From: Octopus vulgaris
Taxonomy: Eukaryota
Assembly (NCBI GenBank): GCA_951406725.2
Contig: OX597816.1
Span: 155,620,001 to 155,684,000, forward strand
Reading direction: 5' to 3'
Length of the DNA stretch: 64,000 nt
Position numbers and translations under genes: made by a program. The notes beneath the pieces were generated by a model. It was given only the letters and a program-made list of their open reading frames with translations, had not been told where the DNA came from and did no database searches. Positions 49,691 through 57,773 of the stretch are shown here, one piece after another. Each line of letters opens with the position of its first letter. Positions within the stretch are counted from its first letter, which is position 1.

Positions 49691-49905
49691 AGAAGGTTTC
49701 CATGATTGTTTGATAACAGATATGTCATAATGGTTGATCTCGCTTTTAACCTATCGTGTTAAAATTGTTGCCTCTACTGGAGGTGAGAGTAAAGTAAGCA
49801 TTGTAAATATAAGCATTACTGCAGCTGCAAATATAGATATAAATATGCCAATGTTAGATTAAGTAAACGGGCTGCCATTTGGTTGGGTTAGTCCATTATA
49901 TATAC

Positions 49906-49973
<68 letters not shown>

Positions 49974-50284
49974 TCAATATAGGGTGGCAAAAAATTTCGT
50001 AGAATTTATTTGCCACCAGCGGCCTAGTGGGAAAAAATTAAATAGTCATAGACCATTTATAAGTTCAACATCACAATCAAGGAATGGCCATAATAGGCCA
50101 TTCACCCACTAGAAATAACAGCCAAAGCTTTCAACCGCAAAATAACATTAATTCCGCAAACCAGGAGAAAATTAAAAAAACATTTACCCTGTAATTTCTT
50201 ATACGATGCACTGTTTCATCTATTGTTTAATGGTAAACTAACCTGATTAAATTAAATCAAGCCAATCTTCCATAGGCCGATAGA

Positions 50285-50387
50285 TTCTAACTGATGAATC
50301 TATCGGCCTATGGAAGATTGGCTTGATTTAATTTAATCAGGTTAGTTTACCATTAAACAATAGATGAAACGGTGCATCGTATAAGAA
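50285..50387 (+). ncRNA. Type I hammerhead ribozyme (tandem copy 1)
   Basis: ttctaa-CTGATGA-atctat...atagat-GAAAC-ggtgcatc-GTA-taagaa; predicted cleavage after 50381; one stem I mismatch. Confidence 0.8.
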
Positions 50388-50767
50388 ATTACAGGGTAAA
50401 TGTTTTTTTAATTTTCTCCTGGTTTGCGGAATTAATGTTATTTTGCGGTTGAAGCTTTGGCTGTTATTTCTAGTGGGTGAATGGCCTATTATGGCCATTC
50501 CTTGATTGTGATGTTGAACTTATAAATGGTCTATGACTATTTAATTTTTTCCCACTAGGCCGCTGGTGGCAAATAAATTCTACGAAATTTTTTGCCACCC
50601 TATATTGATTAATTATGAATTTTCTGGTTAATTCCGTAATGGAATCGGCGGCTTATATTTGCTGCCGATAAATTTGGCGCGAGTGCGATGATTTGAAAAT
50701 TTTAGGTCAGATATTGCCGAGGCAGGGATAGTGGTGCCTCGTGATAATATCTGCTCGGATCTGGCTG

Positions 50768-50870
50768 TTCTTACTGACGAATCTATCGGCATATGGAAGA
50801 TTGGCTTGATTTAATTTAATCAGGTTAGTTTACCATTAAACAATAGATGAAACGGTGCATCGTATAAGAA
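50768..50870 (+). ncRNA. Type I hammerhead ribozyme (intact core)
   Basis: Stem I ttctta/taagaa; CTGACGA core 50774-50780; stem II atctat/atagat with long internal hairpin; GAAAC; near-palindromic stem III acggtgcatcgt; GTA cleavage triplet ending at 50864. Confidence 0.85.
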
Positions 50871-50994
50871 ATTACAGGGTAAATGTTTTTTTAATTTTCT
50901 CCTGGTTTGCGGAATTAATGTTATTTTGCGGTTGAAGCTTTGGCTGTTATTTCTAGTGGGTGAATGGCCTATTATGGCCATTCCTTGATTGTGA

Positions 50995-51035
<41 letters not shown>

Positions 51036-52302: not shown

Positions 52303-54292
52303 GAAATGTACATAAAAAGGAATCATATCCCAATGGATTGAGGGATCATTGGCAGACTTAGCAGTGTTTGCATGTTAATGTTTTTTTAAAAAGAACATTA
52401 CTGTGTATATGCAATTTTGTTTTATTATTATTATTATTATTTTATTTGTGTGTGTGTGTGGAGGGGTGCATGTTAATATATTTGGAAAACAAAAAAAACA
52501 TCTTAGATTTGCATAAACAATACTTTCAGATTTAATGGTAATTAAATCTATTTATTCTTAAATTTTCATTATTACTTGTGAGAGTATGAATGACAGTATA
52601 GCTTAATTAGTTAATTAAGAATTATTTTCTAAGTCACTTAGTCATAACTGCTAGTTTTAACAATTAATCATTAATTTTTTAATTAATATAGTTTATACTA
52701 TTAACCATAGTTATTGTTTACAGTGTACCACGTAACTATGATAGATTCAATCTGCTTACTGCAATCAGTAGCTGCATTTTAATAATAAGAGAATACTAAA
52801 GGATAATATTTGAGGACTATATTAATACTTACAAAATTATATCTATTAACCGATTAATATATACTTTATTTCATTTGAATTTTAATAATAATTTTAATTT
52901 TTAAAAAAATACCTACTTATATCTATTAGATAATCAATTTATAATTTTAGTAACTTTTTAATTTAACTGTAATTTTTTAACATAAATTTGCTGGTGTGCA
53001 CACAGGATAACCCTTCTTCACTCTTACTGTTAAGTAGTTTATGTTTAGAAGTTAAAATTCGAAAAATCTCACCAATGCAAAAATCGCAGCAAATATTTCC
53101 AATTTTATTGGTTTTGGCAAGGCTTTTGATTTCCCACTTTAGGTTACATAATATATTTTTGTCTTTTAAGTCCAAAATAAATTTGCTTAAACTGGTATGT
53201 GGTAATTTGTTTCTATTTTTATATGTGCATTTGTGGTTGGTTATTCACTTTTTAATATAATTTTCCCTAGATCCTATGTAAAAATAGTTTTTACCCTCAG
53301 ATTCCACTTTACATCTATACACTACATTTTTTTGCTTGCAACAATTTTTAAACAAACAGTTATCTTTAATTTTGCAATCACAATATATATTTTTATTTTC
53401 TTTTATAGAATTGCATTTAGTATTGTTATTGTTCATAGCATTAGTTTTTTGGTTAAGATGGGATAGAACGTGGGTTGTTTCCCTTTGTATTTTAGCGGGT
53501 TTATTAGCACATTCATTATAATCAGAATTGTTTATGCTATCCTATACTGTATCTGTACTAAAATTAACTGTATTATTAAAGAAATTAGTTAACTTTTTAT
53601 TGTTAAGTGAAGGTACAATCTGGGAAACATTAGTTGAGGCAGAAAATCCAATACCAAGTTTACTGGTGTTAATTATATCATAATATTTACTTCCCTTAGT
53701 AAAGTGTTTTGAAAATAGTTTATAAAGAGATTTAACCAAGTTACTTTTAATTTGCATAGCAAATAGAATAATTAACCATATAAGATTGTGCTTATTAGAA
53801 GTTCCAATACAATTATCCAATTGCGAATCAATTTTATTTATATATAGGGTATGTCATTTAATTTCATTTTTATTTTCATGAATTTCATTAGATGAATGAA
53901 GTAATAAATATGTTTTCATATGTTGGATATCATTGTTATTTAGTGTATATTTATTTTTACCCTTATTTCTATTCTTTCCAGACTTAAAAATTTTTCTGTT
54001 ACTATTCATTATATCTATGGTATTCCTATCACTGTAGTTTATACTTGATGAATAACCTCTGCTTATATCTTGCCCTACTGAGCGCCATGTTGTAATAGTT
54101 TGTGTTTTTGTTGAAAAATTTCTCGCCTGATGATAAATTTGAGATTCTTCTAGATATATTGTAAGCCATAGAATTTGTGATAGATCTAGGATGATTACTT
54201 CTGATATATGTTTAAGGTTGGTATTAGGTTTGTGGAATGGTTCATGGTTTCCAGTAAGAAGGTTAAGGTTTACATCTAAGAAGTTATTTCAA
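52204..54292 (-). mobile_element. Penelope-like element remnant (Naiad/Nematis-type): RT thumb, Asn-rich linker, GIY-YIG endonuclease
   Basis: NFLDVNLNLLTGNHEPFHKPN..SNHP; CDCKIKDNCLFKNCCKQKNVVYRC..YIG..NH..TSLSKFI.DLK..WEI..CDFCIGE..LLNSKSE..CVH..KF. Confidence 0.85.
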
Positions 54293-55996: not shown

Positions 55997-57685
55997 GTAA
56001 GAAGAAAATAAGCAAAAATGCACATTGGAAATCAAAACAGTAAAGACTTTTTATGAAAAGGACAGGTATATACCATTAGATGAACTGAGGTAGGAATAAA
56101 AGTAATAAAAGTCATTATTGTGAATTAAATTCAATATTTGTCCAACCCATGCTAGCATGGAAAACGGACGTTAAACGATGATGCTGATGATGATAATACA
56201 GTTTACTATCGACACAAAATGTGGAATTGCAATGAAAACCTGAGCTGCTCCAGTGAGTGTGAACCTTGTAATGGGCTACCTAGAACTTAAAATATACCAA
56301 TCATCACTACAAAAATATAGCACCTCATTCCATTGCTATTTAAAGGAGAACTGGAAGAGGTATTTGGACAACTGCTTCATACTTTGGAAAGATAGCATCA
56401 ACAAACTCCTCGATTTCAAAATAATGCTTAACAATATTAATACCAACATACAATTCACCATAGAGCACAGTAATAAACAACTCCCTTTTCTTGACATCCT
56501 AATTAAAATAGTCAAAAACCACATTGAAACAGACATCTTCTATAAACCCACAGATTCAAAACAATACCTATTATCCAACTCATGCCACCCCAAACACATA
56601 AAAATTAATATACCTTATAATCTAGTGAAAAAAATCTGTACTCATGAACAAAGACTCCTTGAACTCAGATCAATACTAATCAAAAGACATTACTCGATAT
56701 CATTAATAAATGATGGCATTAAACGAGCTAAGGAAATAGATATACGAACATTAAGGGAAGTCAACTGAAATGCTACACCAAACTTAAAAATACTCCCATA
56801 CATCTCCACACATAACCATAGAAACAGCGAAACCTTCAATATTGTCATCCAAAATCTACCCATCCTCACAGGAGATAAAACAATGAACAAAATAAGCAAA
56901 ATGCAACCTAAATCATTGAAAAAATATTAACCAGTGCAAGCCTATATCCATTAATGGAACCAAAAGTGAAAAAATGTGGTCTATCTAACTGTGGTACATG
57001 CCCCCATCTTTTGGAGGGTTCAGAGTTCCACTTTAAACAAGGTGAAATATTTTATATTGGCAAACAGGAAGTATCACTCCATCAAAGAACCACTCTCAGC
57101 AAAGAACAAATCTACCACCCACAATACAGACAGATACAGGTCAGTGAACACATAGAAAGGTGTGCTAGGAACCTTAATCCTAATTTCCTAATTTTCCCCT
57201 TCTATCAATGTTCACAGAACACCTCAGTACAGCAAAGGATGAATAAAGAGGTAACTTTCATCAATAAATATCTTCAACAACTCAATATGAACACATAACA
57301 TAATACAGAACACTACTAACCTTTTAATTAATACCATTAACCCCTACATATCCCATACACCATTCACATTACAGATTTATATCTACCCTAATAACACCAA
57401 ATCCATAACTACTTACCTCTCTTACACATAATCTTTTTACTCAGGGACTAGTAGACCCAACACCATTCGGTAATCAGTGTGCAATCAAAGCAGTGAACAA
57501 TAATTTTACAAAGCCGGTATGCCTTTGAATCTCTTTAACAATTCACAATAATGACTTTTATTACTTTTATTCCTACCTCAGTTCCTCTAATGGTACACAT
57601 CTATCATTACTTTTCATAAAAAGCCTTTACTTTTTTTGATTTCTAATGTGCATTTTCACTTTTTTCTTCTTATTTTCCTCTTACA
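55997..57685 (+). mobile_element. Penelope-like element remnant with inverted terminal pseudo-LTR segments
   Basis: WKRYLDNCFILW, LPFLDILI, TDIFYKPTDSKQYL..SCHPKH; CGLSNCGTC and YIG; 55997-56127 is an imperfect reverse complement of about 57540-57685. Confidence 0.85.
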
Positions 57686-57726
57686 TTTCCATGTGTAGTT
57701 TCTATTTTCTTTTTGTAACATATTTC

Positions 57727-57773
<47 letters not shown>

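Follow-up and report, generated by a model that had tools for sequence, protein, structure and literature searches.

A young protein-free retrozyme family of Octopus vulgaris with paired 3' ends in (TA)n tracts and a probable Penelope-type mode of insertion

Metazoan non-LTR retrozymes (coral, mussel and axolotl, PMC7229834; vertebrate survey, bioRxiv 10.64898/2026.07.22.740005) are described as tandem repeats of a non-coding unit that contains a type I hammerhead, with a low GC content and a structured monomer, occurring as dimers to multimers alongside Penelope-like elements (these sources and those cited below were available in part, and statements about them refer to those parts). Their entry into the genome is a matter of proposals, either reverse transcription on a circle (PMC7229834) or local amplification (bioRxiv 10.64898/2026.07.22.740005). 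Elements of the Penelope/Poseidon and Neptune types (PMC8557442, PMC3846280, PMC4209133) display 5' truncation, partial tandems, an inverted 5'-truncated copy, a one-sided tail, microsatellite targets and a hammerhead upstream of their ends; two of these papers (PMC8557442, PMC3846280) treat the origin of the inverted arms and tails as an open question. Palindromic, dimer-folding hammerheads have been described for Penelope repeats (PMC4209133). Besides, the protein of an anole Penelope-like element (PLE) cuts and extends both DNA strands, uses two internal RNA start sites and was modelled as a dimer (PMC11167929). The octopus element described here resembles both groups in all the retrozyme and Penelope traits listed above.

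The element of the window and its family

In the window, i.e., the whole stretch of 64,000 nucleotides that was analysed, an element spans 49966-50996 and consists of an inverted arm and 1.5 tandem units, with a (TA)n tract on either side. Judged by its sequence, it is one copy of a young, protein-free mobile family with a unit of ~485 nt and a predicted self-cutting RNA. Unit positions are counted from 50382 (+1), the first base past the predicted cleavage site, and E1 and E2 designate two fixed 3' ends of the family. The features are the following:

49897..49965, no strand: left (TA)n target tract
49966..50287, minus strand: inverted 5'-truncated arm of 322 nt (unit positions 398-483 plus 1-235)
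50285..50287: junction of the two arms, head to head, overlapping by 3 nt (locus L001)
50285-50996, plus strand: forward arm of 1.5 units, ending 132 nt beyond the second cleavage site
50285..50388, plus strand: hammerhead 1, core 50291-50297, predicted cleavage after 50381
50382..50864, plus strand: complete 483-nt unit, from cleavage site to cleavage site
50565..50599, plus strand: hairpin ahead of E2, followed by TTGATT and the E2 point 50616
50768..50871, plus strand: hammerhead 2, intact, core 50774-50780, long stem II, predicted cleavage after 50864
50865..50996, plus strand: partial unit (1-132) ending at E1
50962..50983, plus strand: 8-bp hairpin ahead of E1, followed by TTGATT
50997..51031, no strand: right (TA)n target tract

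A first-pass annotation had read from this DNA two hammerheads 483 nt apart (CTGATGA, CTGACGA, GAAAC, GTA ending at 50381 and 50864) in a non-coding, CpG-retaining unit embedded in (TA)n, and all of these points were recovered, CTGATGA lying at 50291-50297 and CTGACGA at 50774-50780. The unit at 50382-50864 is structured (z -5.2), its longest stop-free frame read round the ring being 60 codons with no ORF above that, and the observed/expected CpG ratio is 1.06, vs 0.27 for the window. The 322-nt inverted arm, the end at 50996 and a mismatch in hammerhead 1 were absent from the annotation. This arm, whose outer end is E2 (+235), is identical to the forward arm at 320/322 positions, does not include the CUGAUGA core and holds the inverted counterpart of the E2 hairpin at 49983-50017. 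The element is covered by contigs of three runs guessed to be RNA and of one run of unknown kind, in which strand, ends and level are invisible, so that they carry no weight as evidence of expression; those of the three guessed-RNA runs cover nothing on the flanks. Among runs recorded as RNA, none contains the stretch. In X1, a lone contig over one position bears an allele found in 1/136 arms sampled.

Exact genome-wide matches amounted to 251 for a 28-mer and 1017 for the stem III 16-mer, vs 0 and 1 for the reversed controls, so the hammerhead unit is not a product of chance; the E2 end followed by TA gave 913 exact matches (control, 7). In a DNA search, 40 of the 1762 candidates were scored and yielded at least 194 matches, many of them in tandem arrays and the best ones with 95-100% identity. 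Across the family, the unit measures ~483-493 nt, and older subfamilies reach down to ~75% identity with it. The main set comprised 106 non-overlapping loci picked by score or hammerhead pattern, and a second set comprised 40 loci picked by the E2 pattern, 35 of which match the unit and 5 do not. Overlapping duplicates, L126 (no unit match) and L152 (part of the L037 region) were excluded. Every analysed locus is a permuted slice of the unit, from 0.4 to 9.2 units long, with tandem units abutting head to tail, and no copy continues into an ORF of its own among these loci, which sample part of the family. The family is thus dispersed and multi-copy, bears signs of retrotransposition, carries a type I hammerhead in each tandem unit and has neither protein-coding capacity nor an LTR-retrotransposon body. 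On these sequence traits it is assigned to the non-LTR retrozymes, a known class in which the octopus unit is a new member.

Several neighbouring observations were made. Insertions at L037 and L152, L088 and L090 are duplicated or rearranged, showing nested inversions or another partial copy in the vicinity. A second, older ring family of 474 nt (L199:3075-3484, L210-L234) has its own hammerhead, two fixed ends and (TA)n targets, and presents a GCTGTTATTTCTAG-like motif, a hairpin and TTGATT ahead of its first end, as in the window family. The copy in L199 had been considered as an ORF-linked relative and was rejected, being this second family sitting inside an old element. A motif search led to an unrelated old dispersed repeat (L235-L254), which bears a motif of ~18 nt common to both ring families. 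A long array of 89-nt tandem repeats with a motif of the second ring family lies at G000:C4:9102370-9106466. Finally, L093:700-1010 (minus strand) holds an element with a long-loop type I hammerhead and a (TA)n end ~125 nt past its site, possibly a third family.

Hammerhead structure and conservation

The elements of a type I hammerhead (CUGANGA, GAAA, NUH and stems I-III) are found in hammerhead 2 and in the family at large. The core is intact in 238/244 full copies, N7 being the sole free position (C182, T25, G24, A7). A few inherited events, with counts that are not independent, lie behind the changes in the stems and the triplet: an A-T to G-C compensatory change of stem II in 5 copies, a compensatory change of stem I in 2 copies with a wobble in 5 more, a GC to AT double change at the centre of stem III in 8 loci, which keeps the dimer duplex and is relevant in the duplex only, and a shift of the cleavage triplet from GUA to GUC in 9 loci. 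Stem III, at 50852-50863 in hammerhead 2, had been noted as near-palindromic, in line with predicted energies of -17.5 kcal/mol for the intermolecular duplex vs -0.2 for the hairpin. According to these models, the hammerhead of the family probably cleaves as a dimer. Caution for any such prediction comes from Xenopus, in which only 1/9 predicted dimers cleaved in vitro (bioRxiv 10.64898/2026.07.22.740005). The first-pass annotation had also counted on an Rfam hammerhead search; no match was obtained, be it at the gathering score or with E values as high as 10, the likely reason being the insert of ~56 nt that stem II closes.

The two hammerheads of the window differ in their predicted state. 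Hammerhead 1 carries an A-A mismatch in stem I that occurs in 1/238 parsed copies, and the predicted stem I pairing probability is at most 0.02 for this hammerhead alone. Moreover, its position is the inversion junction, where a 158-bp hairpin formed with the inverted arm is predicted to trap it, and the pairing of its stems I and II falls to 0 once at least 25 nt of the upstream arm are included; the stems of hammerhead 2 form in the same prediction. Release of a 483-nt RNA by the window copy, as the annotation had proposed, is not supported, since hammerhead 1 is predicted to be disabled, which makes this copy a poor substrate for a cleavage test. The construct put forward for that purpose, 50260-50900, includes inverted-arm sequence predicted to block hammerhead 1.

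Paired 3' ends, mode of insertion and its alternatives

Counted from the cleavage site, 160/174 of the 3' ends fall at E1 (~+131) or E2 (~+235), each preceded by a hairpin and then TTGATT, and 165/174 lie within 25 nt of (TA)4+, vs a baseline of 2%. Among the 68 two-armed loci, 11 with a non-canonical end were left out of the pairing count, and in all the others (57/57) one arm ends at E1 and the other at E2 (p 7e-18). Single-armed loci end at E1 (19) or at E2 (17). In the larger set, which includes E2-selected loci, 73/74 pairs are E1+E2, and the lone E2/E2 case is gone when the outermost ends are used. Such geometry would be expected of two cDNAs primed from both sides of a double-strand break. 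The inverted 5'-truncated arm, the tail at one end and the microsatellite target are all traits of the Penelope type.

The two arms of a locus also share their haplotype. They are identical at all 37 informative columns in 63/70 loci, vs 6.0 expected, and arm divergence is 0.5% within a locus vs 2.9% from other loci (43 loci). Alleles private to a locus are common to both arms in 14 cases and present in one arm only in 58. The arms differ in 7/70 loci, among them L082 at two linked subfamily columns. This sharing could alternatively reflect one dominant source locus or gene conversion. An overlap of 1-9 nt is seen at 46/74 junctions, a raw count with no null.

As to the form of the template, the cleavage site is crossed by 167/220 arms, with 296 read-throughs in total, and the median 5' truncation is 486 nt. 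In a +1..+30 window that was picked after the data were seen, 18 first-pass 5' stops were counted vs 6.1 expected, or 14 vs 2.4 in loci not selected by hammerhead; two stops placed at +1 may be alignment gaps. In later laps, the same window holds 14 stops vs 6.4 expected (p 0.006), and 1 vs 0.8 in the unselected set. Four loci have stops at +2..+23 on both arms. Stops and read-throughs together fit a mix of cleaved linear and circular or uncut/multimeric RNA, pausing of the reverse transcriptase at the hammerhead being an alternative cause of the stop excess; the excess of later laps fits partly cleaved linear multimers or such pausing as well as circles. The period-4 pattern of L089 and the period-3 pattern of L036 point to block duplication after insertion. 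A multimeric circle behind the former was rejected, as unit 1 breaks the period.

From the observed family, its architecture, the two fixed 3' ends, their pairing, the arm haplotype and the conservation of the ribozyme, we infer, with a probability of roughly 0.7, that the locus is a head-to-head insertion of a non-LTR retrozyme, likely copied by a Penelope-like enzyme from two fixed sites into both ends of a (TA)n break. Tandem copies would be transcribed and their transcripts would cleave as hammerhead dimers into ~485-nt RNAs, part of the monomers being ligated into circles. A Penelope-like reverse transcriptase/endonuclease, probably a dimer, would cut both (TA)n strands; priming would take place at E1 (+131) for one DNA end and at E2 (+235) for its counterpart, with a single RNA, or RNAs of one source copy, as template. 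The cDNA would then run a variable distance, past the cleavage site and round the unit if the template were circular or uncut, or would stop near +1 on a cleaved linear RNA. The two cDNAs would be joined at their 5'-truncated ends, often via short overlaps, and some long arrays may later have been lengthened by local block duplication. A stricter version, to which we grant somewhat less than an even chance, has a single Penelope dimer open both (TA)n strands and start two cDNAs at assigned sites on one rolling circular RNA. If true, this would provide a large genomic fossil record explaining the inverted-repeat-plus-tail structure of Penelope elements, an instance of rolling-circle reverse transcription of an animal circRNA, and a ribozyme cleavage site marked in vivo.

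No circle is required if the templates are linear, partly cleaved multimeric transcripts of long source arrays, a reading that we consider rather unlikely. It would account for the stop excess after at least one read-through (14 vs 6.4) and for the two longest single arms, which end at +16 and +25, and the anole PLE inserts in vitro without the need for ribozyme cleavage (PMC11167929). However, the median truncation would shrink arrays in every generation unless they were regenerated, no array above ~9 units is present among the loci listed, and circles have been shown for mussel, coral and axolotl retrozymes (PMC7229834). The inverted arm might instead owe its origin to the first product folding back or priming itself, or be homogenised by gene conversion, with no second priming on RNA. 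Self-priming has been proposed for Penelope inverted repeats (PMC3846280), the shared arm haplotypes would suit such an origin, and 17/74 junctions are near-palindromic, which is above chance (p 1e-4). Yet each arm holds at least 25 nt absent from the other in 8/74 pairs, which argues against a simple fold-back, the majority of junctions join distant unit positions, and the stop of the second arm at the other fixed site is left unexplained; we judge this origin improbable.

The unit could also be the pseudo-LTR (pLTR) of an autonomous Penelope element and the copies its truncated derivatives. Their architecture is like that of Penelope insertions (PMC8557442), Xenopus retrozymes resemble pLTRs (bioRxiv 10.64898/2026.07.22.740005), and our sample covers part of the family only. 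Past the terminal region, however, each analysed locus continues as the ring and never as an ORF, the tandem units abut head to tail, and no Penelope element carrying the unit as pLTR, as the annotation had envisaged, occurs among the analysed loci and sampled families, so that we give this reading very little credit. Even less is left for a satellite that expands through recombination of DNA and keeps a relic ribozyme; as the main route, this is already largely refuted. Block duplications do occur in L089 and L036, and local amplification was proposed elsewhere (bioRxiv 10.64898/2026.07.22.740005), but dispersed insertions, fixed 3' ends, variable 5' ends, (TA)n targets, a conserved ribozyme and arrays on both arms of single insertions (L082, L139, L148, L182) speak against it.

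For the preferred reading, i.e., copying by a Penelope-like enzyme, partners were sought in the genome. The retrozyme-like character and Penelope mobilisation suggested at first sight hold as far as family architecture, hammerhead and insertion traits are concerned; the choice of partners is not supported, as the Penelope lineages of the window are short broken pieces with diverged relatives. They consist of two decayed fragments, 53542-54288 (-) and 56244-57729 (+), the second ending in (TA)n; five ORF fragments of the window had no Pfam match, and nothing significant is common to the unit and those relatives and 3' ends that were examined. An ORF with reverse transcriptase and GIY-YIG domains, as borne by autonomous Penelope-like elements, is absent from the unit, and no copy in the analysed loci runs into one of its own. 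Elsewhere in the genome, young Penelope-like families with intact ORFs are present, namely N1 (Neptune-type, ~810 aa) and P2 (Poseidon-like, ~900 aa), both with hammerhead motifs, two fixed ends, (TA)n targets and the inverted-arm layout of the retrozyme. The clade labels of N1, P1 and P2 come from motifs (CxxC linker, PMC8557442) and not from a tree. For N1, Pfam gives RVT_1 only; candidate GIY-YIG/HTH_animal matches came from the Atlas at a low recognition score. No sequence significantly common to the unit and N1, P1, P2 or older Neptune relatives of the window fragment was found. The P2 tail matches an older retrozyme subfamily at 21/24 nt, by eye, with p 0.003-0.007 uncorrected among 80 comparisons, vs p 0.63 for the window's own subfamily, and may be taken as a weak hint at a partner.

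Further observations concern these families. In N1 (L101-L113, L035; e.g., L101:6900-6940), the core pair of a minimal hammerhead-like motif is U3-A8; in a related family (L114, L115) the pair appears to be A3-U8. Both N1 ends come after TTTCTTAT. At L035:4302-4716, a young copy of the Neptune type bears a retrozyme copy inserted straight into its (TA)n end. In P1 (L155-L168), which is very young and Poseidon-like, the ORF is split at one C run in all 8 copies displayed there, which could be due to a programmed shift, to an effect of the assembly or to the lineage being non-autonomous. P1 has a fixed end at L159:2347; a search with a guessed P1 end plus TA returned 0 matches. A frameshift conserved in two Penelope families was considered and, in the case of L165, abandoned, a close relative of L165 having a 904-aa frame.

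Relation to known retrozymes and Penelope-like elements

The retrozyme class itself is known, and what is new here is the genomic evidence on its insertion mechanism. Neither an octopus retrozyme nor such an end-pairing analysis was found in the literature searched, subscription papers, Repbase and preprint supplements lying outside the search. Compared with the units of ~170-400 nt reported for invertebrates (PMC7229834), the octopus unit is longer; it has a long stem II and a 12-nt palindromic stem III, and is known here from DNA alone. Insertion ends, paired priming sites and inverted arms, which are present in the octopus family, do not appear in the available text of the metazoan descriptions. 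The tail is 104 nt long in the octopus element vs 30-40 nt in Penelope-like elements. In contrast to Penelope/Poseidon and Neptune as described in the accessible sources, the octopus element has no ORF, its repeat is the whole element, and among the autonomous families sampled none shares the unit. The shortness of the ring makes the two arms overlap and allows a comparison between them that would be harder with long coding elements.

A close parallel is anole Poseidon PAc in vitro (PMC11167929), with two internal starts of reverse transcription that define a tail, both strands cut and extended, and an AT-rich target. In that system the strands did not differ in their start sites, whereas the two octopus ends differ at 57/57 loci. 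The pairing of E1 and E2, the shared arm haplotype and the excess of stops after the cleavage site offer precise predictions for this existing in vitro Penelope system.
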